A DNA stretch of 64,000 nt, from NCBI GenBank assembly GCA_031384605.1, contig JANNAT010000142.1, positions 6,367 through 70,366 of the forward strand. The letters run 5' to 3'. A program made the position numbers and the translations under genes. Below, one piece after another: positions 2,033 to 17,235 of this stretch; the stretch's first letter is position 1; the number at the start of each line of letters is the position of its first letter. Origin of the DNA: Cypionkella sp. Its GTDB lineage: Bacteria; Pseudomonadota; Alphaproteobacteria; Rhodobacterales; Rhodobacteraceae. The notes under the pieces were generated by a model, which made no database searches, was not told the DNA's origin, and saw nothing but the letters and a program-made list of their open reading frames with translations.

Positions 2033-3469
2033 TCACTCTGCCGCAACGGCGGCGGGTTGCGCCAGATAGCCAAGGATCGACTCGGCGGCTTCGCGCCCGT
2101 CGCGGATGGCCCAAACTACCAGACTTGCACCGCGCACGATGTCACCTGCGGCATAGACGCCGGGCAGTGACGTGCCGTGGGTGCGAAAATCACCCTTGAT
2201 CGTGCCCCAACGGGTGACGGCCAGTTCGGGCACCCCCCACAGCGTGGGAATCGCTTCAGGTTCAAACCCCAGCGCCTGAATGACCAGTTCTGCAGGTTCG
2301 ACATAATCCGCGCCTTCGATGATCTCAGGTGATTGGCGGCCCGAGGAATCCGGCGCACCAAGACGCATTTTCTGCACGATCACGCCATCCACATCAACGC
2401 CGCCGGTAAAGCCTTTGGGGGCGGTCAGCCAGACGAAATCAACGCCTTCTTCTTCGGCATTTTGCACTTCGCGTTGGCTGCCGGGCATGTTGGCTTTATC
2501 GCGGCGATACAGGCATTTCACTGATAACGCCCCTTGGCGAATGGCGGTGCGCACACAGTCCATCGCGGTGTCGCCACCGCCGATGACCACAACGCGTTTG
2601 GCTTCGGCATTTAGGGCGCCATTGTCGAATTCGGGCACATCATCGCCAAAACTTTTGCGATTGCTGGCGGTCAGATAATCCAGTGCGGCCACAATACCTT
2701 TTGCACCGACGCCGGGGGCGGCAATGTCGCGTGCTTTATAGACGCCGGTGGCAATCAGGATGGCATCATGTTGGCCGCGTATGGCGTCAAAGGTCAGATC
2801 GACACCGATATTGCAGTTCAAGACAAACTTCACGCCGCCCAGTTCCAATTGTTCGATGCGCTGCATCACAACCGGCTTTTCCAGCTTGAAGCCGGGGATG
2901 CCATAGGTCAGCAGACCGCCCGCACGATCATAGCGATCATAAACGGTGACCTGCACACCCCGGCGGCGCAGCACATCGGCCGCCGCCAGTCCGCCCGGCC
3001 CAGCGCCGATAATGCCCACGGATTCGGGGCGTTCGGCATGCGGGCGGATCGGTTTGACCCAACCCATTTCCCAAGCCTTATCTGTCAGGTATTTTTCAAC
3101 CGCGCCAATGGTTACCGTGCCATGGCCCGATTGTTCAATCACGCAATTGCCTTCGCAAAGCCGATCCTGGGGGCAGATGCGGCCACAGATTTCGGGGAAG
3201 GTATTGGTGGCCTGGCTTAACTCATAAGCCTCTTCCAGACGGCCTTCTGCCGTCAGGCGCAGCCAATCGGGGATGTTATTGTGCAGCGGACAATGGGTTT
3301 GGCAATAGGGCACGCCGCATTGGCTGCACCGGCTGGATTGTTCGGCGGCTTTGCTTGCGGCAAAATCGCGATAGATTTCATCAAAATCGCTGGTGCGCGC
3401 ATAGGCATCGCGCTTCTGGGGCATCTCTTTGCCCAAGTTCACGAATGTCAGCATTTTTTGGCCAGCCAT
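2033..3469 (-). CDS. gltD: glutamate synthase small subunit (NADPH)
   Basis: 478 aa. Cys-rich Fe-S region (CSQCGVPYCQTHCPLHNNIP, CPQDRLCEGNC) and two dinucleotide-binding GxGxxG motifs (IIGAGPGGLAAA, VIGGGDTAMDC). Confidence 0.92.
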   Translation of the reverse strand: MAGQKMLTFVNLGKEMPQKRDAYARTSDFDEIYRDFAASKAAEQSSRCSQCGVPYCQTHCPLHNNIPDWLRLTAEGRLEEAYELSQATNTFPEICGRICPQDRLCEGNCVIEQSGHGTVTIGAVEKYLTDKAWEMGWVKPIRPHAERPESVGIIGAGPGGLAAADVLRRRGVQVTVYDRYDRAGGLLTYGIPGFKLEKPVVMQRIEQLELGGVKFVLNCNIGVDLTFDAIRGQHDAILIATGVYKARDIAAPGVGAKGIVAALDYLTASNRKSFGDDVPEFDNGALNAEAKRVVVIGGGDTAMDCVRTAIRQGALSVKCLYRRDKANMPGSQREVQNAEEEGVDFVWLTAPKGFTGGVDVDGVIVQKMRLGAPDSSGRQSPEIIEGADYVEPAELVIQALGFEPEAIPTLWGVPELAVTRWGTIKGDFRTHGTSLPGVYAAGDIVRGASLVVWAIRDGREAAESILGYLAQPAAVAAE

Positions 3470-3630
3470 ATCATCGCCTCGTGGGTCAATTGTCTTCGCA
3501 GCGGCTTGATACGACTGTCCGCTTCGAATTAAAAGGCAGTAATGCTGACCTATTATCGGATTTTTTGCGTTGCTTTGCTGTAGACTGGCTAAAATCCGGC
3601 AATAAAGGTCAGTAAGAGTTACCTAACGCC

Positions 3631-4431
3631 TTAGAGCCCTGCCCAAAGCGCCAGTAAAGCGGCGGATCCCACGATGATTCGCCACCAGCCAAACAGGGCA
3701 AATCCATGTTGGCTGACATAGCCGAGCACCCAGCGCACAACGATCAAGGCGGTGATGAACGCACAAACGAACCCGACGGCAATGTCGGACAGGGCGGAAA
3801 AATCCAACACCTCGCGGTTTTTATACAGATCATAGGCAAAAGCCCCCGCCATCGTGGGCATCGACAGAAAAAACGAAAACTCGGCAGCGGCGCGCCTGTC
3901 AACACCCAGCATCAGCGCCCCCACGATGGTAGAGCCTGACCGCGACACGCCGGGCACCAAGGCCAGACATTGAATGAACCCAATGGCCACAGCTTTGCGA
4001 AACGGTATCTCGGTGGCGTCGTGGTGCACGGGCGCAGGTGCCGCACGATCAACAAACAACAACACGATGCCGCCAAGGATCAGCATGACTGCGATCAGCC
4101 TTGGCGATTCGAACAGCACGGATTTAATGAAATCATGGGCCAACACTCCGATTACAACGGCGGGTATAAACGCCAATGCCACCGAGACGATGAACCGGAA
4201 CGCCGCGGGATCGCGGTGGGCAGTGGAAAACACCTGCCACAGCTTGGCTGCATATAGGGTTATAATGGCCAAAACAGCGCCCAGCTGAATAACCACTTCA
4301 AAGGTTTTTCCAGCACTTTCAAAACCCATGAAGTGCCCGGCCAGCAATAGATGCCCGGTAGACGAAACGGGAATGAATTCGGTCAGGCCTTCGATCAGAC
4401 CCAAGACAGCGGCGACAACGGTATTGGTCAT
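3631..4431 (-). CDS. uppP: undecaprenyl-diphosphate phosphatase
   Basis: 266-aa polytopic membrane ORF. The N-terminus [19 protein letters not shown] is the UppP/BacA signature. Confidence 0.9.
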
Positions 4432-5577: not shown

Positions 5578-5662
5578 GCCCTGGTGGCGGAATTGGTAGA
5601 CGCGCTGGTTTCAGGTACCAGTGTTGCAAGACGTGGAGGTTCGAGTCCTCTCCTGGGCACCA
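5578..5662 (+). tRNA. tRNA-Leu (anticodon CAG), CCA encoded
   Basis: GCCCTGGTGGCGGAATTGGTAGACGCGCTGGTTTCAGGTACCAG...GGTTCGAGTCC...GGGCACCA. It has the long variable arm and Leu-type D arm, and the anticodon loop TTCAGGT gives CAG. One U-U mismatch at 5:68 in the acceptor stem. Confidence 0.85.
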
Positions 5663-6693: not shown

Positions 6694-6770
6694 GTGGTGC
6701 CCCTAAACGTATTCGAACTGCCGACCCCATCATTATGAATGACGTGGGGAAGCAACTTTACCACTTGATT
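6694..6770 (-). other. tRNA-like 3' fragment (not a foldable tRNA)
   Basis: Minus strand reads ...CGTCATTCATAATGATGGGGTCGGCAGTTCGAATACGTTTAGGGGCACCA. This gives a CAT anticodon-loop-like hairpin, a GTTCGAAT T-loop and an acceptor 3' strand plus ACCA. The T-stem 3' half does not pair and no matching 5' acceptor strand (GCCCCTA) exists. Confidence 0.35.
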
Positions 6771-6836
6771 TAATACGGTTTTTCGACGGACGCAAACCGC
6801 TTTACAAGGATGTCACAGGTTTTGCGGTTTGTGACG

Positions 6837-7286
6837 TCACTTCAGATCGACGCCGTCGATCTGCACATACCATTGGGCAGCATCCCTGAGACCCTTCTCT
6901 TGCGCGCCTTTGAACTTCTTGGCTTCGTCCTTGCGCCAAACTTCTCCATGATAGGGGTTATCAGGAAAGTTTGGATCATCCTTGATGGGGGCGTAACCAA
7001 CCATGAGGTCTAGGGAGCGAATGCTTTCCGCCGTAAATGACACGGCACCTTGAAAATCAGGTGTAATCACATACTCCCGTGGGTCCAGTTCAGCATTCTG
7101 GATCAACGCCTCAATGTCCACGGACATGCCAGCCTTGGGACTCGAAGACTTACTATAGAGACCTTTTGAAATTCGCTGCCTGCGAACCTCTCCATTGTCG
7201 TCCCAGACAAGCTGATGCTTAGGCACACGGCGGACGATCACATCCGCTGCGGAGATTTCCTCTTCATCGTAAGGATCCACCGTCAA
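6837..7286 (-). CDS. hypothetical protein C of three-gene cassette (149 aa, candidate effector)
   Basis: ORF with TTG start at 7286 (GTG alternative at 7280) and GAGGG about 10 nt upstream. In the same frame as upstream ORF B, separated from it by a TAG and two codons. Motifs RRVPKH, GMSVD and DNPYHGEVW. No family assignable from memory. Confidence 0.6.
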   Translation of the reverse strand: MTVDPYDEEEISAADVIVRRVPKHQLVWDDNGEVRRQRISKGLYSKSSSPKAGMSVDIEALIQNAELDPREYVITPDFQGAVSFTAESIRSLDLMVGYAPIKDDPNFPDNPYHGEVWRKDEAKKFKGAQEKGLRDAAQWYVQIDGVDLK

Positions 7287-7292
7287 GGAACA

Positions 7293-7799
7293 CTAGCCCT
7301 CGACCTGCATCAGGGCAGGAATCCGCTTTGCCGCGAGGGCGGAAACCCATTTAGACAGTTCAGTGAAATCAGTCTGAACTTCGATTTCTTCCTCTTCATC
7401 AGTCATCAAATCGGTTCTGCAAGCAACTACTTCATAAGGCGCAAGCACTTCAATCTCGAGATCATACTTGTTCATGTGCCACTCCAAACGGAGTGTGCCG
7501 TCGGACATTGGTACCAACTGCGGAGGAGGCAGCGCTTGGGTGTAGAGACTTTCAATAATGTTTGCCGCAAATTGCGCGCAGGTGAATGAGACAGGCAAAC
7601 CGGCATATCCATCCCAACCCTTACGGAGGGATGTTAAAGTGTTGAAATCACCTTCTAGTTCCCTGACCCAAGGGGACCGCGGATTCGAAACGCGCACCCG
7701 CGCTTGCCTCACGGGGAGCGACGAGATCGGATCATCAACCTGAAAGAAGTTCGCGACTTCGTCCTGGTACACGGTCGAAAATGCTGATCGAGCGTTCAT
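7293..7799 (-). CDS. hypothetical protein B of three-gene cassette (168 aa, acidic C-terminal part)
   Basis: ATG at 7799 shares one base with the TAA stop of ORF A (TAATG). Motifs LRKGWDGYAGLPV and PPPQLVPMSDGTLRLEWH, plus the acidic run TDEEEEIEVQTD. Confidence 0.65.
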   Translation of the reverse strand: MNARSAFSTVYQDEVANFFQVDDPISSLPVRQARVRVSNPRSPWVRELEGDFNTLTSLRKGWDGYAGLPVSFTCAQFAANIIESLYTQALPPPQLVPMSDGTLRLEWHMNKYDLEIEVLAPYEVVACRTDLMTDEEEEIEVQTDFTELSKWVSALAAKRIPALMQVEG

Positions 7800-8596
7800 T
7801 ATAGCCTCCCCCAGATCGTGTGGGCTTCAGAAGTTGTAATTTCAGAGAACCTGGTAACGATTGCGTCTCGGCCTGCTGCAAGAAATTGCATAGCTGCATC
7901 CACGCCATTGCCCGCTGGCTTGCCTTTAAACGTCAGAGACAGCCTAAAGACCTTTTGCTTCCCATCGACCGTGAAGGCCGACTGTAACTGGTGAGTGAGG
8001 CGGGCATATGGCTTGCCATTGGCCGATCTCATGACCTGACCAAAACTAACATTCAACCCTTCCATCTCGAACGATCCCGTCCAGATGCGAAACCACTTCT
8101 CAGCTTGCGAAAATTCGTCCACGGGGATGATGTTGATATAGGCCACTTCGGCTTGATTTATGTCAATTTTATAGGCGAAGTCGGACGCAAAGTGCTTTTC
8201 CAACCGGCGCAACTGGGTTTCCATCGCTCCCGACAGCCCCTCGAAATGCGGGTAGGGCTGAGTATTGGGCTGCCGCCGCCAGTTTGTGATAAAGCGGTCC
8301 GGTTGAAACTGTAACAGGTGGTTTTCGTCTTCTGAAACGAACCAGAGTCTGCTCCCAACCGGAGGCGCACCTACAATGAACTGCGGGCCGATTTGCAGGT
8401 TTGCGCCGCCAAAGGTCTCGAACTGGGGGTCGATGACTGAATGCTCTTGGACCTTGGGGAACTCTTGGCGAAACAGGTCCCAAATGCCCTTTGCATAAAC
8501 CGACGCATACGCGGGAACCGACGCGAATTGCACGCCCAGAACAACCTCATCCAACGGAGGTCGCGAGTAGTCTGGAAGGTGGTCAGGCCGTATCAT
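7799..8596 (-). CDS. hypothetical protein A of three-gene cassette (265 aa, TIGR04255-like by recollection)
   Basis: GGGAGAG RBS 7 nt before ATG 8596. The N-terminus PDYSRPPLDEVVLGVQFASVP and the length of about 260 aa match my memory of the uncharacterised TIGR04255 family. Confidence 0.7.
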   Translation of the reverse strand: MIRPDHLPDYSRPPLDEVVLGVQFASVPAYASVYAKGIWDLFRQEFPKVQEHSVIDPQFETFGGANLQIGPQFIVGAPPVGSRLWFVSEDENHLLQFQPDRFITNWRRQPNTQPYPHFEGLSGAMETQLRRLEKHFASDFAYKIDINQAEVAYINIIPVDEFSQAEKWFRIWTGSFEMEGLNVSFGQVMRSANGKPYARLTHQLQSAFTVDGKQKVFRLSLTFKGKPAGNGVDAAMQFLAAGRDAIVTRFSEITTSEAHTIWGRL

Positions 8597-8673
8597 CGAA
8601 AATCTCTCCCAAGACCTTGTAGCGCAGGGTTGACTCGCGTGACTAGCGCTAACTGCACCTCATAGATAAAAAT

Positions 8674-8693
8674 CCTTGACACTCCGTTCAAGG
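8674..8693 (-). terminator. hairpin followed by a T-run, downstream of tRNA-Thr (overlaps a possible cassette promoter)
   Basis: Minus strand reads CCTTGA-ACGGAGTG-TCAAGG followed by ATTTTTAT. A TTGAAC-N17-TATCTA sigma70-like pair (8691..8663) overlaps it and could drive the cassette. Confidence 0.4.
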
Positions 8694-8729
8694 TGAGTCC
8701 CGTGCCGAGTCGATTGTGTCGGAAGCGCG

Positions 8730-8802
8730 TGCCGCACGAGGGACTCGAACCCCCTACCCCCTATTTACGAAACAGGTGCTCTACCGGATGAGCTAGTGCG
8801 GC
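8730..8802 (-). tRNA. tRNA-Thr (anticodon CGT), no encoded CCA
   Basis: Hand-folded 73-nt cloverleaf: GCCGCAC TA GCTC ATCCGGTA GAGC A CCTGT TTCGTAA ATAGG GGGTA GGGGG TTCGAGT CCCTC GTGCGGC A. All stems pair. The 3' flank is CGC, not CCA. Confidence 0.9.
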
Positions 8803-9144
8803 CACGCGTTTGTGCATGTAAACGACGAGGGTGAATCCTGCAAGTCAAATACCTGCAGCGGAAGAACGAACGGGCCTCAGGCAACAAACCGGAGCAGCGA
8901 TCCGAAGGCCAGCGTCAGAAGCGTCTTGATTATGGGAGGTCCACGTCAGTGATGCGACGTCCTACGCTCACCCAGCGCGCACATTTCCCTGTGTCTCGTG
9001 TTTTCGCCTGCCATGATGGGGCGCGACCAATGAACCGCCATGCGCCTACGCGCTCCTGCGGACGGCATCACGACGTCAAACTCCTGCCCCAATGTCTTGC
9101 TAAACCGCCCAGAAAATGGAGTAGAAGCCGTGAGTTCATGGAGA

Positions 9145-9507
9145 ATGCAAGACAGGCCTTACTGGCCAACCTTGATCGAACGCGTTGAAGTGATGGTTGC
9201 GAATGGCGAACATCGCCACTCCATCAGCGAAGCTATCTTTAAGGAGTTCGGCCTTCCTCGTCAGTCGTTCGGTATCGCCGTCCGCCGTGGGGACATTCCC
9301 GCCATGCCTGCAAAAGACAAATTGCGGGCGGCTGCGCGCAAGGCGGGTGAAACGACATATCGCTCGGAGACCTGCGTGACGTGCGGCAGTCTTATCCGGT
9401 ATGTAGCAGACTACCGCTGCGTGGCCTGCGACATGAAATATGCAAAGACCTACGCCCCAATGGCTGAAACGACGATGGACCGCCCTCATGCCACCCAGCT
9501 GTTATAA
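9145..9507 (+). CDS. hypothetical protein with C-terminal CxxC...CxxC zinc ribbon
   Basis: ORF 9040..9507 trimmed to ATG 9145 (GTG 9130 also possible, with GGAG upstream). Contains CVTCGSLIRYVADYRCVAC. Confidence 0.5.
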   Translation: MQDRPYWPTLIERVEVMVANGEHRHSISEAIFKEFGLPRQSFGIAVRRGDIPAMPAKDKLRAAARKAGETTYRSETCVTCGSLIRYVADYRCVACDMKYAKTYAPMAETTMDRPHATQLL

Positions 9508-9528
9508 CCGAATTATCAGGCCTGCGGC

Positions 9529-9762
9529 TCAGTCCAAATCTCCGAAGCAGTCTGACTCGGTCATAAACCCTAACGCATGGGCGCGCCGTTGCTCGTTCAG
9601 CGGGTCATCCACGAACTTGCCTTCCAGCGGGTAGGCCGTGGCCTGCGCGCCGTCGGCGAAGATCACCAGCCACACGCCGGGGTCTAGCTGCTCGACACGG
9701 GCAATTTCCGGCAGGCCCGAGAACATGCCCCGAACGCCTTCGTCTGTGTCAGGGTGTGGCAT
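9529..9762 (-). CDS. small hypothetical protein
   Basis: ORF 9529..9870 trimmed to the first ATG (9762); ATG 9726 is preceded by GAAGG. Convergent with the zinc-ribbon ORF. No recognisable domain. Confidence 0.35.
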   Translation of the reverse strand: MPHPDTDEGVRGMFSGLPEIARVEQLDPGVWLVIFADGAQATAYPLEGKFVDDPLNEQRRAHALGFMTESDCFGDLD

Positions 9763-10090
9763 TCGGCGGCGATCCTGTAGGGCGTGGGGCGCACGGTCTT
9801 GGGGCGCGATGCAATGATGGCCAAGGCACGACGGCGACCGAGGCGCGGGTTGGGTCGGTCGCAGCGCCACTCCTCGCGCAAAACAAGCGGGAAGTCACGC
9901 TCTGGCAGCGAGGGGGTGGGTCGGATGAAGAACATGCAGAAGCCTCCGTTGCTGATCGAGGCTCATGCATAAGTTCCATTTTTGTTCTTGCTCAACCAAA
10001 GTTTTTGCACCACCTTCCGCCTTCACCGTTTGTTAGCCTTGGACAACCGATAGTGGCTTGCGATAGTCAATATGTAGCGAAGGAGCGACC

Positions 10091-11236
10091 ATGCCGCACA
10101 CTTACTACGATTTCTTCGCGGGCGGCGGCATGGCTGGATTCGGCCTTGGCACGGACTGGAAGTGCTTGTTCGCGAATGACATTGACGCAAAGAAAGCGGC
10201 CAGCTACCGCGCGAACCATTACGGCGGCAAAGAGCTGTTGCTCAAGGACGTCGCGACAGTGACGCCGGATGAAATACCCGGTTACGCCGATCTCGTCTGG
10301 GCATCGTTCCCATGCCAAGACTTATCACTGGCTGGTAAAGGCGCTGGGCTGGCGGGCAAACGCTCAGGCATGTTCAAACCGTTTTGGCAGCTTGTCCGCG
10401 ACCTTCATGCCGAAGGGCGTGGCCCAAAGATGGTGGCCGTTGAGAATGTCTATGGCGCGATTACCAGCAATGGCGGGCGCGACTTTGCCACGCTGGCCGC
10501 ATCGTTCTCGGGACTCGGGTATCGGTTCGGGGCAGTCGTCGTCGATGCGGTTCACTTCTTGCCGCAGTCACGCCCGCGCTTCATCATCATCGGAATTAGG
10601 GGCGATCTTCGTATCCCAGACGGTTGCATACAAGATGCACCGTCGTCGGTCTGGCACCCACCCGCACTGATCGAAGGTCACAACCTGCTTTCGGTAACGG
10701 CAAAAGCACGTTGGGTATGGTGGAATCTGCCCGTCCCACAGGCGCGGGGAACCAAACTATCCGACCTGATTGAGGACCACCCGAAAGGTGTGAAGTGGCA
10801 CACAAAAGCCGAGACGCAATACCTGCTCGACATGATGACCGACCTCAACCGCAAAAAGGTGGAAGCGGCAAAACAGCTTGGCACAAAGGCTGTCGGCACG
10901 ATCTATCGGCGCACGCGACTCGACGAGAATGGAATCAAACGCCAGCGGGCAGAGATACGGTTCGATGAGGTAGCCGGATGCCTGCGAACCCCTGCGGGCG
11001 GATCAAGCCGCCAGACCATCATGATCGTTGAAGGGGACAAGGTGCGGTCGCGCCTCCTGTCGCCGCGTGAGGCTGTATCGCTGATGGGCTTGCCGCCGTC
11101 CTACATTCTGCCTGAGCGGTACAATGACGCCTACAAGCTGGCTGGTGACGGCGTTGCCGTGCCTGTTGTCAGACATTTAGCAGAGGCGATCTTTGAGCCG
11201 CTGCTAATGCGGAATCGACTCGCTTTGGTCGCGTAA
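10091..11236 (+). CDS. DNA (cytosine-5)-methyltransferase
   Basis: 381 aa with GAAGGAG RBS. C5-MTase motifs are present in order: FAGGGMAGFGL (I), SFPCQDLSLAG (IV), AVENV (VI), QSRPRFIIIG (VIII), GDGVAVPV (X). Confidence 0.92.
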   Translation: MPHTYYDFFAGGGMAGFGLGTDWKCLFANDIDAKKAASYRANHYGGKELLLKDVATVTPDEIPGYADLVWASFPCQDLSLAGKGAGLAGKRSGMFKPFWQLVRDLHAEGRGPKMVAVENVYGAITSNGGRDFATLAASFSGLGYRFGAVVVDAVHFLPQSRPRFIIIGIRGDLRIPDGCIQDAPSSVWHPPALIEGHNLLSVTAKARWVWWNLPVPQARGTKLSDLIEDHPKGVKWHTKAETQYLLDMMTDLNRKKVEAAKQLGTKAVGTIYRRTRLDENGIKRQRAEIRFDEVAGCLRTPAGGSSRQTIMIVEGDKVRSRLLSPREAVSLMGLPPSYILPERYNDAYKLAGDGVAVPVVRHLAEAIFEPLLMRNRLALVA

Positions 11237-11255
11237 TTTCCAGTAAGTATCGGTC

Positions 11256-11975
11256 ATGACTGACCGAAACCCAGATGATACCAATTTCCCGCCATTCGAA
11301 ACCGAAGACCTTCGGACGAATTTGGCTGCATTTTTATCTGTCCCTTTTGACGACCCAATATTGGGTCGCGCGCGACCTGTCGGGTCGTTCACTTGGGGCG
11401 TGTATGCCTTCTTCGATTATGACGGTGAGCCGATCTACGTGGGGCAGACCAAAGAGAAGATCAGCACGCGGATTCGGAGGCACCTGACAAACCAACGCAC
11501 AGATGCTGTCGCAATGTCGGTGCTTGATCCGTTCGAGGTTTACGAGATCGAGGTGTGGCCGCTGCCGCAGTTTGAGAAAACGCCGAAAGGCGATCTTGCC
11601 GCCAAGGCTCACTTGGATGCGCTGGAACATTTCGTCTATAGCAACGCCGTGACCAACAGCACATTTAGGGCCGTGCTGAACGAGAAAGACCCGCCCGCAC
11701 CCACGGTGGCCGTTACAGCCCCACCCTCCCTGCGCTATTGCATCGTGTCGGAGCACGTCCACAAGATCAGGTCGCACCCTGATTTCCGCACTGCGCGCCG
11801 CGCGCTGATCATATCGCGTCTTGCGCAAGTAATCGCTGAACGGAAGGTGCAAGGCGGTTTGCGCCGCGTGCTGCTGACACAGGCCAAGCGCCTGCAATGG
11901 CTTGCTGATCGCCGCTACAATGCCCTTGGTGGTGCGGCATCGGTCGAAACCGAAGCCAGCGGCGAGGACGAATAG
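11256..11975 (+). CDS. GIY-YIG nuclease family protein, putative restriction endonuclease partner
   Basis: 239 aa, 19 nt downstream of the methyltransferase gene on the same strand. Contains GVYAFFDYDGEPIYVGQTKEKISTRIRRH, followed by YEIEVW (GIY..YIG, conserved Arg and Glu). Confidence 0.7.
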   Translation: MTDRNPDDTNFPPFETEDLRTNLAAFLSVPFDDPILGRARPVGSFTWGVYAFFDYDGEPIYVGQTKEKISTRIRRHLTNQRTDAVAMSVLDPFEVYEIEVWPLPQFEKTPKGDLAAKAHLDALEHFVYSNAVTNSTFRAVLNEKDPPAPTVAVTAPPSLRYCIVSEHVHKIRSHPDFRTARRALIISRLAQVIAERKVQGGLRRVLLTQAKRLQWLADRRYNALGGAASVETEASGEDE

Positions 11976-12140
11976 CAGCCAACGCAGAACGCGTCGTGGC
12001 TTAGGCGGTTCGATGATCGCGCCCCATCACGGTAGGGCGAAACACCACAATCGCAGTGCTACCCCGGTTCTGCTGCGTCTCTCGTGGCGTTCAAGGTGCA
12101 ACGGCCCAGTCGGTCAACATGAACGAAGGGACAGCGCGCG

Positions 12141-12323
12141 TCAGAACGGGCTTTCGTTCGGATCGGACGGGGGCACCTTCGGGTTGGGCTGGTGCTGTAG
12201 TCCATACTTCTTGAGCATCTCAGGATGAACGGTCAGGCCAAGTGACAGGGCTTCAAGAATAAGCTTGTGCTCTTTCTGCTTTACTTTGTCGTGCACTGCT
12301 CGAAGCAGCCTCACCATCGCCAA
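12141..12323 (-). CDS. small ORF, possibly the tail of a decayed larger gene
   Basis: 60 aa with TTG/ATG start. The same frame stays open and protein-like for about 28 more codons upstream (HERLSKALASATQAYGYNTLFEP) with no start codon. Confidence 0.3.
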   Translation of the reverse strand: MAMVRLLRAVHDKVKQKEHKLILEALSLGLTVHPEMLKKYGLQHQPNPKVPPSDPNESPF

Positions 12324-12465
12324 TGGCTCAAACAGTGTGTTGTAACCATATGCTTGGGTAGCACTCGCAAGCGCCTTGCTTAACCGCTCATGACGTCGTG
12401 ATGATCGGTCCTATCCCGAGTTCGCTGCAACCGAGAGTTGAGTTGTTGTGCCCTCGTTCGTTGTC

Positions 12466-12837
12466 TTAACCGAGTAATGGTATGGACGCCGACAACTGCA
12501 ACACGTCGCGCCACCAAGGCGCGCCCGCTATTTGCTTCATCCAGTGGACCAACTGATCCGCCTCAGGCGGACCGTCGGCGGGCAGATACTGTCGCGGGTG
12601 AGCCGTCTGGCTCTCGATCAGGCTGTCCAGCGCTTGCACTGGCTCGTCCCAGACCGGATGGCCGTTCAAGGCGCGGTTCCAAGAACTGTAGTCCTTCGCC
12701 TCGTCGAACCAGTCCGCCTTAAACGGGGTGTTGCACAGATCAACGATCCGTTGCTTCGTGACGTTGAACCGCAAGAGTCGTGCTGCGTCATTCGGATGAA
12801 ATTGCGCGACTTCGCGTTCTTCTTTTTGCTCCCGCAT
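12466..12837 (-). CDS. hypothetical protein translationally coupled to the Xis/AlpA-like gene
   Basis: 123/124 aa. Its ATG overlaps the TGA of the upstream gene (TGATG). No recognisable domain. Confidence 0.5.
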   Translation of the reverse strand: MREQKEEREVAQFHPNDAARLLRFNVTKQRIVDLCNTPFKADWFDEAKDYSSWNRALNGHPVWDEPVQALDSLIESQTAHPRQYLPADGPPEADQLVHWMKQIAGAPWWRDVLQLSASIPLLG

Positions 12838-13070
12838 CACTGATGCTCCTTCAAGAAGGTCACCAGATCATCGCGCAGGTAGCGAACAATGCGGGTATTT
12901 GGCTGGCTGTATTTCGGACCGGTCTTGTCTTTGCGCCAGCGAAACAGCGTTTCGGTTGTGACCCCGACATACTCGGCTGCTTCCGCAGGGGTCATCACTG
13001 CGGGTTGATGCGACCGGATAAGATCACGGTGCAGGTCAGCAAGCTGCTGGCCGATCATTTCGATTTTCAT
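12837..13070 (-). CDS. AlpA/excisionase-family helix-turn-helix DNA-binding protein
   Basis: 77 aa. MTPAEAAEYVGVTTETLFRWRKDKTGPKY is the MerR/AlpA-type excisionase HTH. It lies directly downstream of the integrase on the same strand. Confidence 0.75.
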   Translation of the reverse strand: MKIEMIGQQLADLHRDLIRSHQPAVMTPAEAAEYVGVTTETLFRWRKDKTGPKYSQPNTRIVRYLRDDLVTFLKEHQ

Positions 13071-13207
13071 AAGAGTTATCCAACGATGGGAGGTTACAGG
13101 GATATGCCCTCGTGGGGGCGATTTTCTCTGCGTTACCGTCGCTGGCCTTACTTCCCCTCAGGGCTAGTTTGGCCGTGCCGCACCGCTACACCGTTGATGT
13201 GATTGAA

Positions 13208-14440
13208 TTAGGCGGTCGCTTGGCGAATTTCAACAACATTGATAGGAGACAATCCGAATTGATTGTTGACGGAATTCGCAATCGCGTCTGCTGACCGCTT
13301 CTGCTCCTCCTGTGTCGGTTCGCCATAGTGACCGAGCATTCGCAGATCGTCGTCGGTCATGGTCTGCTGTGCAAGCCAGCGGTGAACGTGACGGGGCGCA
13401 ACCTCGCGGGCGGTGGACATCCACAGGTGGCGCAAATCGCCCGCCGCCGTCTTGGGCAAGCGGTCAAGCGCGTCCAGATGCCCACGTTCTTCGCCGATGA
13501 TGCGACGACTTGGAAATACCCAGTTGCAATCATCGGCCCGAATGTCGTGGAGGCGTTTAAACAGGCGCACCACGTCGTCGGCAATCGCGATGGTGCGCGA
13601 CACTTCCTGCTTCTTGAGCCTGTCGAACGTGACCGTGCCAGCGGCAAGGTTCACCTGATCCCATGTCAGCGAACGGAGCGAACGCCCCCTGAAACCCGTG
13701 TACCAAGTGATCAACCATGCAAGGCGGATATGTTCGTTTTCGATGTCGTCAATCTCGGCCTTCCGCACTTTCCAAGACACTCCCATGTCCAGCTTGCCTG
13801 TCTAGATCCGGCTTTTCATTTGGGTGTTGTCGAGCAAAGCGGGTATGGGCAGGGCAAGGGCGCACAGGCGATTGACGAACCGAACAACCGCGCCTGCAAA
13901 CCTTCTACGTCAACAAGTGGCACCCGACGGCGCAGAAAACGCGCGCGGTCAAACTCGGCCAATGGGCGGCATAGTGCACGCATTGCGCTTGGGCAAAGAA
14001 GCAGGTCGGAAAGGTCGTCCTCGACATTCAGGAGGGCAATGTTCGGACCAAGGAGGAGAAGGCCGTCGAGGCCGAGGCGCTGGGCGTGCCGACATTCCGC
14101 GAGGCGCTGGATCAATACATCGCGCATCGGACAACTGCCCGCGCATCTGGTAAGGCGCGCATTATCGAAGCGACCTCCAAGGACTATCAGCAGTCGTTCG
14201 ACAAGCATTTGGGCAAGTGGGAAAAGGTGCTGGTGACGGACCTGCCCGTTTTGGAGATCAATCGCTACCTGAACGCATTGCAGGTTGCGCACCCTCATGC
14301 TGCCCACCGCGCGGCGTCGATTTCGTCCCTCCCGACGTGACGCACAACCTCAACCCCTTCACGTCGGGATCGGTGAACCAAGTGGTCTTGTCCGCGCTCA
14401 GGGTGCGCAGGTTCGTGTCGGTGAACTTGATCGCGGGCAT
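13208..14440 (-). pseudogene. tyrosine integrase (DUF4102 Arm-domain type) disrupted by an internal inversion and two in-frame TAG codons
   Basis: The Arm-domain N-terminus MPAIKFTDTNLRTLSADKTTWFTDPDVKGLRLCVTSGGTKS lies on the minus strand (14440..14315). The middle part ...TFYVNKWHPTAQKTRAVKLGQW...TFREALDQYIAHR...INRYLNALQ... lies on the PLUS strand (13888..14314). The catalytic part VVRFVNRL...YTGFRGRSL...DLRHLW...LGHY lies on the minus strand (13887..13208). The pieces total 1233 nt, or 411 codons. Confidence 0.8.
13888..14314 (+). other. inverted internal segment of the integrase gene, bounded by a 6-bp inverted repeat
   Basis: CCGCGC at 13888-13893 and GCGCGG at 14309-14314 are exact reverse complements. 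Flipping this 427-bp segment joins all three coding pieces in one frame (checked by coordinate arithmetic mod 3 at both junctions). Confidence 0.7.
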
Positions 14441-14486
14441 TTTGTGGTTCCTTGTAACGCCGTTGGATTTACAGGGCCGACGATAC

Positions 14487-14565
14487 GATCTAACACCACC
14501 GTGACACAACCGAATGTTGGTCGGTTGCCTTATTTCATTGGGTAATGTTGATCTAACACCACCGT
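14487..14565. repeat. two 16-bp direct repeats GATCTAACACCACCGT just upstream of the integrase start
   Basis: Exact copies at 14487-14502 and 14550-14565, 63 bp apart start to start. AATGTTG is also duplicated next to them. The position fits arm-type integrase sites or an att region. Confidence 0.6.
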
Positions 14566-14668
14566 ATGTTGCCACAGTTTACGCATTACGAATGATGTGC
14601 TCTACGAGCTGAACTATTCGGGCAGTGAGCGTTTATTTATCAGCCTGTCACTGCCAGCACAAGATGCG

Positions 14669-16117
14669 CTAATTTGCGCCGCGCGCGACGGCGGCCAGAT
14701 CAATAACCTCTGCGTCAGGCGCGATGACGACTGGTTTTGGCGGCGGGTTAACCAAAAGGGGCAAAAGTTCAGATCCAGTGGCGCTTGGCCCGGTTGTCTC
14801 GGCGGGTTCACGCCATGACAGCGTGTCAAACCCGGCGCAGTTTTCGCAGATTGGGGCCCAGGTGGAATGGATGGCCTGACATTTATCACAACACCATTGC
14901 GGGCCGCGCGGGGCCGTCAGCGCCCGCGCCAGCCAGCCCCGCACCACGGATTCGTCACTGCCTTCGCCACGCTCTATCGCCGCCATGATGGCAAGACTGC
15001 GCTGGGTTGGGTGACGGGTGATCAGATCAGCCAGGGCACGGCGCGCCTGCGGGAAATCTTCCGCCGAGATATTCAGTTCCGCCAAAAGCATCAGGGTTTC
15101 ATCATTATTGGGTTGCGCTTGGGTCAAAACCTTGAACCGTTTCAACCGCGCGGTGGGAGTCTCATCAGGCTCTATCATGGCAAAAGCGGCGGCAAGATCG
15201 GGGTGCGGGCGCACGTCCCATGCCTTTTTCAAGACGCGGGTGGCAGCTTTCTTATCGCCTTTGTCGATCAGGCTGCGCGCGGCCATCGCGGCAGCAGGGA
15301 TCAGATCGGGTGACAAACGGTTTGCCTCAATCGCGGCCTCACGCGCGTCGATGCTGGCGCTGTCATCCATCACCATGCGCGCCTCTTGCAAGGCCAACAC
15401 GGCATCGCGGCGGCGGTAAACCTCTTTGGGCAGCGCGCCCGCCTTCATCTTCGCGCCTAAAGTGGCGCGCGCGCCTTTCCAATCAGCGGATTCAGACTGA
15501 AGTTTCAGCAAAATATCCTGCGTTTCGGAATGTTTTGGCTTCAGTGCAAAAGCCTTTTCTGCCAGCTTCAGAGCCATATCCGTGTCACCTTCTGCCAGTT
15601 TTTGACGCAAAAGCCCCCGCACCCCAACAAAGCGCGTGGTGTCATCGGCAAGCAGCGCTTTATAGGCGTCCGTCGCGCGCTTACCGTCACCTGCGGCTTC
15701 GGCGGCTTGGGCGATCAGCAGGGTGGTCAGGGCTGGTTTGGCCAAATATTTCTCGGCCCGCTGCGCCCGCATCAACGCAAGCCGCCCATCCCCAGAGGCC
15801 AAAGCAAGCAGGCCGTCATTCAACGCCTGATAGCCTTTGCGTTCACGGTTGCGATCAAAATAGCGCGAGATCGCCGTTTCGTCACCATTCAGAAACCGGA
15901 TCACCGCCACAACCAAGCCGACCAGTTTCATCACAGTCCACAACAAAACCACCAAAACCAGCAAGACAATTGCCGTTTGCAGCGGCCCCAGGGTAAATTC
16001 CCAACCGGCAGCGGCGATGCGAATGCCCTCATCGCTGTGCAGCAAGATATCCGCGCCAAACGTGATGCCCGCAATTGCGGCGATGAACAACAGAACCTTG
16101 ACCAATGACCAGATCAT
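14669..16117 (-). CDS. HemY N-terminal-domain / TPR membrane protein (heme biosynthesis-associated)
   Basis: Start moved to ATG 16117 (MIWSLVKVLLFIAAIAGITFG, with two TM segments). TPR-like Ala-rich body and a C-terminal CDKCQ...CENC zinc ribbon. Sits in the usual position next to hemD. Confidence 0.75.
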   Translation of the reverse strand: MIWSLVKVLLFIAAIAGITFGADILLHSDEGIRIAAAGWEFTLGPLQTAIVLLVLVVLLWTVMKLVGLVVAVIRFLNGDETAISRYFDRNRERKGYQALNDGLLALASGDGRLALMRAQRAEKYLAKPALTTLLIAQAAEAAGDGKRATDAYKALLADDTTRFVGVRGLLRQKLAEGDTDMALKLAEKAFALKPKHSETQDILLKLQSESADWKGARATLGAKMKAGALPKEVYRRRDAVLALQEARMVMDDSASIDAREAAIEANRLSPDLIPAAAMAARSLIDKGDKKAATRVLKKAWDVRPHPDLAAAFAMIEPDETPTARLKRFKVLTQAQPNNDETLMLLAELNISAEDFPQARRALADLITRHPTQRSLAIMAAIERGEGSDESVVRGWLARALTAPRGPQWCCDKCQAIHSTWAPICENCAGFDTLSWREPAETTGPSATGSELLPLLVNPPPKPVVIAPDAEVIDLAAVARGAN

Positions 16118-16125
16118 GTTGCCCC

Positions 16126-17235
16126 CTATTCGCCGAATGTTGCGGCAAGGGCCGCGATTGCGTGTTCTGCGGCAAGCCGTGTTTCCGCCATTTCCTGCCA
16201 CGGTGCAAGGGCCGCCACCGCCTCTGGTGGCAGGGCCTGCAACTCTGTCAGTGCTGTGGCCAAGTCGCCGGTGCTCACGGCCACCTCGGCGCGCGATAAA
16301 ACTGCGTCAGGATCGCTGCCTTCGCGGGGTTCCAGAGATCGCGCGCCGGTTTGACTGCGCAAAAAGCTTGCCGCCCGCTCTGACCAGCTTTCCCCCATAT
16401 TGGCCCGCAACGCCGCGTCCAATGCCAGCCGGGCCGCAGGCGGAAATGCTGTTTCAAGGTCGGACAATGTGGGCAGGCCACCATCGGCATGATCCATCAA
16501 AACTGCGGGAACAGAGCCTGTTTGCGTCGCCAATTCGGCCAAAGTGGGCGCATAACCGGCCCCCGTATCGAAAGCCGTCCGAAGTTGCCCAAGGGCGGCC
16601 AGCCGACGCACGGACTTTGCCAATTCATCGGCGTTCTTTGTCGTTTCCGCAGCAATTGTCTGGACTTCTTTCAACTGCGCTTCGGTTTCCGCTGCCGCCC
16701 CTTGGGTGTTTTGTGCCGCGACGGCCTGACGCAAGCCCTGCATGTCTGCTTGCAGCGCCGCGACGGCGGCGGCTGTGGCACCTGACCCATCCGCCGGCAG
16801 TTTTTCAATCGCCAACAGCCGGGATTCAAGCGCCGAAATTCGATCTTCAAGCGGCATTGGATCAAAGCCTTGCTTGCCTTCCAATACCGTCAAACGGTCT
16901 AAAACAACAGGATCCGTCGCGGTTGTTTTTGGCGCAATGGCCATTTGATCGCTCAAAGCGTTAATTTGCACGGCTTGCGCCGCGACTTGGGTTGAAAGCG
17001 TCTTGGTCGCCGCCGAAGGCCAGCCATTTGGCACAACTTGCGCCAATGCAAACCCTGCAATTGCAGCGACAATCCCGCCAAAAACCGCACCACCAAAAGC
17101 GTTGCTTTTGGGTTTTGGGCGGGCGGGCAAAATTTCGGGTGCGGGTTCGGGTGCTTTGGCTTCAATCACCTCGGCATTGATTGGCTCATCGGTCGGTTCT
17201 TTGGCGTCTGTTTGCATCATCATCGGCCTTTTCAA
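16126..17235 (-). CDS. mitofilin-family (alpha-proteobacterial Mic60-like, COG4223) membrane protein
   Basis: 369 aa. One TM segment (FGGAVFGGIVAAIAGFALAQVV), an Ala/Gln-rich coiled-coil body and a C-terminal VSTGDLATALTELQALPPEAVAALAPWQEMAETRLAAEHAIAAL mitofilin-like end. Located in the hemD/hemY neighbourhood. Confidence 0.7.
   Translation of the reverse strand: MKRPMMMQTDAKEPTDEPINAEVIEAKAPEPAPEILPARPKPKSNAFGGAVFGGIVAAIAGFALAQVVPNGWPSAATKTLSTQVAAQAVQINALSDQMAIAPKTTATDPVVLDRLTVLEGKQGFDPMPLEDRISALESRLLAIEKLPADGSGATAAAVAALQADMQGLRQAVAAQNTQGAAAETEAQLKEVQTIAAETTKNADELAKSVRRLAALGQLRTAFDTGAGYAPTLAELATQTGSVPAVLMDHADGGLPTLSDLETAFPPAARLALDAALRANMGESWSERAASFLRSQTGARSLEPREGSDPDAVLSRAEVAVSTGDLATALTELQALPPEAVAALAPWQEMAETRLAAEHAIAALAATFGE

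Follow-up and report, generated by a model that had tools for sequence, protein, structure and literature searches.

Introduction

Compact mobile operons of the toxin-antitoxin or defence-like type are familiar as a kind, and the toxin-antitoxin systems include tripartite examples such as toxin-antitoxin-chaperone (TAC) and PaaR-PaaA-ParE. PDC-M32 is a two-gene candidate system in PADLOC, proposed on computational grounds. With regard to mobility, a cis-mobilizable element (CIME) is defined as one that has retained both attachment (att) sites, attL and attR, and has lost its integration genes (PMC5704250). Here we analyze a cassette of three genes, which we call A, B and C and together the triad, in a 64,000-nt stretch of DNA from Cypionkella sp. 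(GCA_031384605.1, contig JANNAT010000142.1, positions 6,367-70,366, forward strand; hereafter the window). The triad has likenesses to each of these systems, and as a particular system it is undescribed. Comparison loci that hold the triad or its parts carry labels such as L006 and L097.

Results and Discussion

Conservation of the triad

All three genes lie on the minus strand of the window and, in the list of open reading frames (ORFs), are tightly packed: A (7799-8596) encodes 265 aa and B (7293-7799) 168 aa, each from an ATG start, and C (6837-7286) encodes 149 aa from a TTG start. The stop of A and the start of B have one base in common (ctaTAATGaac), and the gap from the B stop to the C start is 6 nt. 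An earlier note on this DNA had described this arrangement of three packed minus-strand ORFs of 265, 168 and 149 aa, with the shared base in TAATG and the 6-nt gap; its coordinates are exact and both junctions are seen in the sequence.

The association of the three genes is evident from the genomes that carry A. Scanning 185,579 species genomes with an alignment of A gave 135 relatives, and the best 80 of these 135, with 35-68% identity to the A protein of the window, form the comparison set. The genomes were retrieved by A alone, and B and then C stand behind A on the same strand and in the same order in 80 of 80, which answers in the affirmative the earlier note's question of same-order co-occurrence in unrelated genomes. 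The 80 genomes span Alpha-, Beta- and Gammaproteobacteria, one member of the Pirellulaceae and one of the Chloroflexia; clustering of all flanking ORFs in the 80 loci revealed no fourth conserved gene beside the triad. A is intact in 78 of 80 loci and all three genes are intact in roughly 95% of loci, the true disruptions being those of A in L060 and L065 and of C in L080. In 54 of 65 loci the end of A and the start of B share 4 nt. The arrangement persists at much greater distance: a Mycobacterium plasmid carries a TIGR04255 protein (the family of A, see below) with 28% identity to A, followed by a B homologue (hhalign probability 97%) and a C homologue (hhalign probability 96.6%), directly 3' of a MobF relaxase gene; the IMG/VR contig L090 holds a divergent version of the triad; and a remote member of the C family, in L102, has A and B directly upstream. 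In all, the triad occurs in roughly a hundred unrelated bacteria, prophages and plasmids, with the gene order unchanged. Together, these results strongly support the conclusion that A, B and C are one unit.

Two loci depart from this arrangement. In a 1.7-kb metagenome contig (L103, 823-1644), one ORF is matched by the profiles of A (E 9e-60) and of C (E 4e-32), and B is absent; this reflects either a deletion or a faulty assembly. In a metagenome-assembled genome of Thiolinea (L101, 11293-12058), an insertion sequence (DDE_Tnp_1) splits B from C, and a gene for a HigB toxin lies behind C.

The three protein families

Protein A matches the NCBIfam family TIGR04255 over its full length, with residues 10-263 aligned to positions 2-252 of the 252-position profile and a score of 92.2 bits (E 4.3e-26), above the cut-off of 30; the family that the earlier note had suggested for A is thereby borne out. 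TIGR04255 is an NCBIfam family without an assigned function, and in the literature searched we found neither a mention of it nor a description of its coupling to the B and C families. Searches of A against Pfam, PADLOC and PHROG returned no match, and comparison with PDB sequences, a broad profile included, gave chance-level matches only. We propose that A is a sensor or regulator.

Protein C yields no match in Pfam, NCBIfam, PADLOC (E up to 1) or PHROGs, and only chance-level matches among PDB sequences, even with a profile built from 62 sequences. Its AlphaFold model is a compact alpha/beta fold of high confidence (predicted local distance difference test, pLDDT, 93; predicted template-modelling score, pTM, 0.88) for which Foldseek finds no significant neighbour, the best E values being 0.45 in PDB and 0.08 in BFVD; on the strength of this model the fold is apparently new. 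Family, PDB-sequence and fold searches are thus all empty, in keeping with the earlier remark that C fits no family that can be named. An exhaustive profile search shows the C family to comprise 473 cluster representatives at 50% identity, nearly all of them standalone proteins of 140-160 aa. Among 116 diverse members, Ser55 is conserved in 100%, Arg90 in 98%, His113 in 98% and Arg19 in 97%, and Ser40, Gly53, Pro100, Asn110 and Trp117 are each at least 90% conserved. The conservation of Ser55, Arg90 and His113 across the diversity of the family suggests an enzyme active site, and we propose that C may be an enzymatic effector with its active centre at these three residues.

Two specific identities for C were tried and set aside. 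An ADP-ribosyltransferase (ART) identity was suggested by an R...S...HxE pattern and by weak matches to AvrPphF (E 0.48, template-modelling score 0.30) and NarE (E 4.1), the best among ART folds. The idea was dropped: the fold matches do not rise above noise, and the family has no invariant Glu at the catalytic place of the ART [QE]xE motif, position 115 being E, Q, D, A or G. A resemblance of C to SspB, prompted by the Acetobacter locus described below, was also considered, and no similarity was found.

Protein B has no match in Pfam or NCBIfam. Its segment 52-153 aligns with the C-terminal third of the PADLOC profile PDC-M32A (E 3e-10, profile positions 262-362 of 375) and, weakly, with phrog_30544 in a PHROG scan. 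In the AlphaFold model of B (pLDDT 80), residues 1-25 are disordered and are followed by two helices, a five-stranded sheet and a last helix, with the motif GWDGY in the alpha/beta core; against PDB, Foldseek gives no significant fold match and the sequence profile gives chance-level matches only. B is acidic, with a median isoelectric point (pI) of 4.5 across loci. We propose that B is a partner or neutralizer of C. For none of the three proteins did the Pfam, NCBIfam, PDB and literature searches turn up a described function, as the earlier note had held.

A locus on an Acetobacter persici plasmid (NZ_CP014688.1; L095, 403-6252) shows the B domain in another setting. There a 297-aa protein consists of two tandem B-like domains, and the gene for an SspB-like protein (PF04386) overlaps the 3' end of its gene; a second pair 3.5 kb upstream consists of a gene for a 342-aa protein and another SspB-like gene. 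The order of a double-B-domain gene and then an SspB-like gene suggests that a B-type domain can pair with various small partners.

Comparison with PDC-M32 and toxin-antitoxin systems

The match of B points to PDC-M32, and the two systems have the B domain, and only the B domain, in common: the C-terminal ~100 aa of PDC-M32A correspond to the core domain of B. A Sinomonas plasmid carries a true PDC-M32 pair, beside a type I restriction subunit gene, in which component A matches its model at E 3.5e-26 and component B at 5.9e-24. The first gene of this pair encodes a 337-aa protein that ends in a B-like domain, and it is overlapped by the gene for a 153-aa protein, much as C follows B in the triad. 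By eye, the order of motifs in PDC-M32B is the same as in C, and the divergent C relatives of L090 and L094 match PDC-M32B weakly (E 0.008 and 0.015). The systems differ in that PDC-M32 has two genes and the triad three, with no counterpart of A (TIGR04255) in PDC-M32. The idea that PDC-M32A is a fusion of A and B was rejected, as its N-terminal 220 aa compared with the A profile give an hhalign probability of 0.5% and A has no match in PADLOC. Nor does the triad belong to PDC-M32 itself: B matches PDC-M32A in part, and the C protein of the window has no match to PDC-M32B. The two systems thus seem to be built on a conserved core, a B-domain protein and behind it a small C-like protein, to which a variable upstream part is added, and to judge from the profile matches the triad is a partial, split relative of this candidate system.

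The likeness to type II and tripartite toxin-antitoxin systems is one of architecture. The genes of the triad are small, co-directional, and overlapping or nearly touching; an acidic, partly disordered protein is encoded upstream of a putative enzyme; and the triad is sporadic and mobile, occurring on prophages, plasmids and islands near HigB, HicB and BrnT genes. It differs from such systems in that its proteins have no sequence or fold similarity to a known toxin, antitoxin or SecB-like chaperone, and in that its largest protein comes first.

A tRNA-bounded mobile element

In the window, the triad lies between a tRNA gene and a decayed partial copy of that gene. The left boundary is tRNA-Thr(CGT) (8729-8802, minus strand), identified by ARAGORN and by Rfam (tRNA, 61 bits), and is attL-like; 133 nt separate its 3' end from the start of A, a distance that the earlier note had put at about 130 nt. 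The right boundary, at 6695-6742 on the minus strand, is a 48-nt attR-like remnant of the 3' half of tRNA-Thr(CGT), from the anticodon loop to CCA, that starts 95 nt past C and has ~79% identity to the corresponding copy in L007. Neither an exact nor a short-BLAST search of the window finds an exact att repeat, and the remnant is seen only in alignment with sister loci; since this decayed half-tRNA aligns with the sister repeats, the element spans approximately 6695-8802.

Four other loci retain both boundaries. In L006, L007 and L011 the triad lies 144-150 nt past tRNA-Thr(CGT), and perfect repeats of 48, 52 and 45 nt, respectively, each a copy of the tRNA from its anticodon loop to its 3' end, are found 94-114 nt past C. 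The same layout occurs in L065 at tRNA-Thr(GGT), with a perfect 46-nt repeat. Between the repeats of these four loci are 2.05-2.3 kb that contain A, B and C only, with no integrase or transfer genes. More broadly, in L006, L007, L010, L011, L058 and L099 A lies 127-151 nt behind a tRNA-Thr(CGT) gene, and 13 of 81 loci have a same-strand tRNA gene no more than 1 kb upstream of A, compared with 12 tRNAs in the ~1.18 Mb of remaining flanks. Unusually long repeats flank the triad at other targets: in L037, 234-nt direct repeats with 97% identity at a non-tRNA site (9476-9709 and 11829-12062), and in L017, 87-nt repeats with 91% identity that correspond to the 5' part of an opposite-strand tRNA-Ser (9686-9772 and 11848-11934).

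Larger elements carry the triad as well. In Sulfitobacter sp. D7 (L097, 9678-19822) it belongs to a 10-kb island at tRNA-Leu(CAG), where it is the cargo nearest the tRNA; the island also holds IS66, a gene similar to those of contact-dependent inhibition (CDI) toxins, AlpA, a P4-type integrase and a 45-nt att repeat. Among the 2.9 million contigs of IMG/VR, four hold the triad or parts of it in closely related form, and true phage genes lie no more than 10 kb away; relatives of A are absent from 50,697 GenBank phages, and one plasmid record holds a distant relative. In prophage-like contigs the triad lies 3' of portal and Bbp19 genes (L088) and 3' of genes for gpD and the HicB antitoxin (L087); in KLH11 it lies 3' of TraG/VirD4 and adjoins IS66 and BrnT/BrnA; and in L090, by eye, ArdC-like and HigBA-like genes are next to it. 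That HigB, HicB and BrnT modules are its neighbours points to a genomic niche of the same type.

Horizontal mobility of the triad is thus strongly supported: the half-tRNA repeats are of the att type, and the carriers are prophage-like contigs, a conjugative element and a plasmid, just as the earlier note's reading of horizontal acquisition would have it. The att-flanked copies, having no integrase, fit the definition of a cis-mobilizable element (PMC5704250). The triad element resembles a CIME in being flanked by att-type repeats of the 3' part of a tRNA gene, with no integrase or transfer genes inside, and in having a related copy within an integrase-bearing island at a tRNA gene. It differs from CIMEs in that these are described for decayed streptococcal integrative conjugative and integrative mobilizable elements (ICEs and IMEs), whereas the triad element is only 2 kb in size, consists of one specific operon, and has near-identical boundaries in several alphaproteobacterial families.

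The attachment site of the Sulfitobacter island, tRNA-Leu(CAG), is also present in the window at 5578-5662, 1.2 kb from C, and in a Marivita locus (L008) the same tRNA lies 842 nt past C.

Proposed role of the triad and alternatives

Given the features above, we tentatively propose that the triad is a mobile module of the addiction and/or abortive-infection type, similar in kind to toxin-antitoxin systems, a reading based on analogy to which we give a probability of about 0.45. The roles that we infer for the individual proteins are as follows. C would be an effector enzyme that arrests growth, with the Ser55/Arg90/His113 centre on a previously unseen fold; B, acidic and translationally coupled, would bind C through its GWDGY alpha/beta domain and restrain it; and A, made from the same message just before B, would either regulate the pair or sense a trigger, for instance infection by a phage or loss of the element. 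Islands that integrate at tRNA genes, prophages and conjugative elements would carry the module as cargo, and where the triad stands alone between attachment sites it may be moved by an integrase acting in trans or may resist deletion.

The analogy rests on the acidity of B, the translational coupling of A and B, the domain in common with PDC-M32A, and accessory positions in prophage-like contigs near toxin-antitoxin genes; to this extent the earlier note's proposal of an addiction or phage-defence module finds support. Consistent embedding in defence islands is not supported. The immediate neighbours of the triad on chromosomes are mostly housekeeping singletons, with defence genes in the minority: the 140 nearest neighbours include, in raw counts, ResIII and PbeA three times each, type IV restriction endonucleases twice, and type I, type IIG, DpdE and ZorD once each. 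As most neighbours are unrelated housekeeping genes, an association with defence islands is not established. The predominance of housekeeping neighbours weighs against the proposed role, and so do several other observations. C is not basic (median pI 5.8), and neither Foldseek nor the PDB sequence profile reveals a similarity of C to any known toxin fold; Pfam and NCBIfam detect no antitoxin-type DNA-binding domain (helix-turn-helix, HTH; ribbon-helix-helix, RHH; AbrB; or Phd) in A or B. PDC-M32 is itself a computational candidate only, for which the literature searched holds no test and one incidental mention, and comparison of PDC-M32B with the C profile gives an hhalign probability of 0.1-0.7%. 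Finally, a prophage lysogeny module (L092, 145-4246) that comprises tRNA-Phe, an integrase, an excisionase, a fragment of B (3009-3206), C (3206-3646) and a CI-like S24 repressor has an intact C with a truncated B and no A, a combination that would be awkward if C were constitutively lethal.

The next most probable explanation is that the triad is purely an addiction cassette, which stabilizes islands, prophages and plasmids by post-segregational killing and has no anti-phage role; the 2-kb att-flanked copies would then be survivors of island decay, since cells that delete the cassette die. Such a cassette would explain why att repeats in four genomes, and decayed ones in the window, enclose nothing but the triad, and would account for its carriers (a plasmid, a conjugative element and prophage-like contigs), for its weak association with defence islands and for the integrity of all three genes in ~95% of loci. 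Many copies, however, are surrounded by housekeeping genes and show no sign of a mobile element in the nearest 10 kb, and the distances from the tRNA to A and from C to the repeat are too uniform across genera for independent decay. The evidence does not tell addiction from defence, and many modules do both; we regard addiction in this exclusive form as unlikely. It is less probable still that the triad renders the mobile element some other service that leaves the host unharmed, such as anti-defence, entry exclusion or establishment after transfer. The positions directly 3' of the MobF relaxase gene on the Mycobacterium plasmid and 3' of TraG/VirD4 in KLH11, the adjoining ArdC-like and HigBA-like genes seen by eye in L090, and the accessory-gene positions in prophage-like contigs are what one would expect of such a service, but most copies are chromosomal and outside recognizable transfer or phage modules, close copies are found on only 4 of the 2.9 million IMG/VR contigs and in 0 of the 50,697 GenBank phages, and the att-flanked 2-kb copies have no element left to be served.

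If the triad were itself mobile, with A, B and/or C catalyzing excision and integration at tRNA genes, it would represent a new kind of recombinase, and repeat-flanked A-B-C segments of 2.05-2.4 kb are indeed found at at least four targets (tRNA-Thr with anticodons CGT and GGT, the 5' part of tRNA-Ser, and the non-tRNA site with the 234-nt repeat); the right repeat lies a constant 79-116 nt past C, and the invariant Ser of C, with its Arg and His, is as in a phosphoryl-transfer enzyme. Against this, ~85-90% of loci have neither a tRNA nor flanking repeats, none of A, B and C is basic, Pfam and NCBIfam find no recombinase or DNA-binding domain in any of them, and the triad also rides inside other elements. 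The repeats, moreover, extend from the anticodon loop to the 3' end, the classical footprint of a tyrosine integrase, and the Sulfitobacter island has such an integrase. A and C were also compared with serine and tyrosine recombinases, with no Pfam or NCBIfam match (E up to 1) and no match among PDB sequences, and the fold of C matches no recombinase in PDB. We consider self-mobility very improbable, and equally so the specific version in which the triad would be an autonomous miniature integrative element, with C as a Ser/Arg/His phosphoryl-transfer enzyme of new fold and no known integrase. We would be similarly surprised if the triad proved to be a chromosomal accessory pathway, for metabolism or for RNA or protein modification, that has been transferred horizontally by chance. 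The mostly housekeeping neighbours, the purifying selection on all three proteins and the enzyme-like invariant residues of C would suit such a pathway; yet the triad has no conserved metabolic partner or transporter, its context differs in nearly every genome, its distribution is sporadic (135 relatives in 185,579 species genomes by pattern scan), and it is carried by phages, plasmids and islands and lies near toxin-antitoxin genes.

If an addiction and/or abortive-infection role is correct, it would provide the first functional clue to TIGR04255 and to two unnamed protein families; should C be toxic and B neutralize it, C would define a new toxin family, and should the triad block phages, it would be a new three-component defence system. 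C itself combines a confidently predicted fold that has no structural neighbour with a clear candidate active site. The compact, obligate triad moves across phyla on islands, prophages and plasmids and is linked to the candidate PDC-M32, and its 2-kb att-flanked copies offer a clean case for the persistence or movement of cargo that lacks an integrase of its own.

Other features of the locus

Upstream of A, the sequence GGGAGAG is read as a ribosome-binding site at 8604-8610 (minus strand), 7 nt 5' of the ATG, where it had been placed before, and GAGAGG or GGGAGA is kept at the corresponding site in sister loci. The promoter that the earlier note had suggested farther upstream (TTGAAC-N17-TATCTA) is not supported: a sigma-70 scan upstream of A returns 0 sites. 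Because the same bases fold as a hairpin followed by a T-run (8693-8664), a terminator of the tRNA gene is likelier than a promoter; the scan for terminator-like sites marks this hairpin, CCTTGA..TCAAGG and then the T-run, at 8664-8693 on the minus strand, as a probable tRNA-gene terminator inside the element. A counterpart, GGACTC..GAGTCAAGCATTTTT, is kept in the sister loci L006-L011, and it seems that the element brings its own terminator for the tRNA gene that it abuts. The upstream inverted repeat GACTC..GAGTC was also considered as an operator and rejected, being present in only 5 of 80 loci, all of one clade, with a T-run after it and the tRNA directly before it; given the T-run behind the repeat and its position straight after the tRNA, we read it as a terminator.

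The element has a GC content of 52.4%; that of the whole window is 56.1%, and among 2-kb segments 14% have values as low. The AT-richness that had been pointed out is therefore a real dip but a modest one, rather than the contrast of 48% with more than 60% first given.

On the other, 5' side of tRNA-Thr(CGT), positions 8803-14600 of the window hold a C5 cytosine methylase gene (10091-11236), a gene for a GIY-YIG protein (11256-11975) and an integrase fragment (13208-13786), as well as a candidate 155-aa ORF (9040-9507) between the tRNA and the methylase gene whose product has two CxxC pairs and no Pfam match. The restriction-modification genes and integrase remnant that had been noted near the triad are therefore present, in the form of the methylase, the GIY-YIG protein and the integrase fragment; their supposed link to the triad is not supported, as they lie on the opposite side of the tRNA. 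The block is situated between tRNA-Thr and hemY (14669-16201), and since hemY is directly upstream of the tRNA in sister genomes (for example, L006), the methylase block looks like a second, separate insertion.

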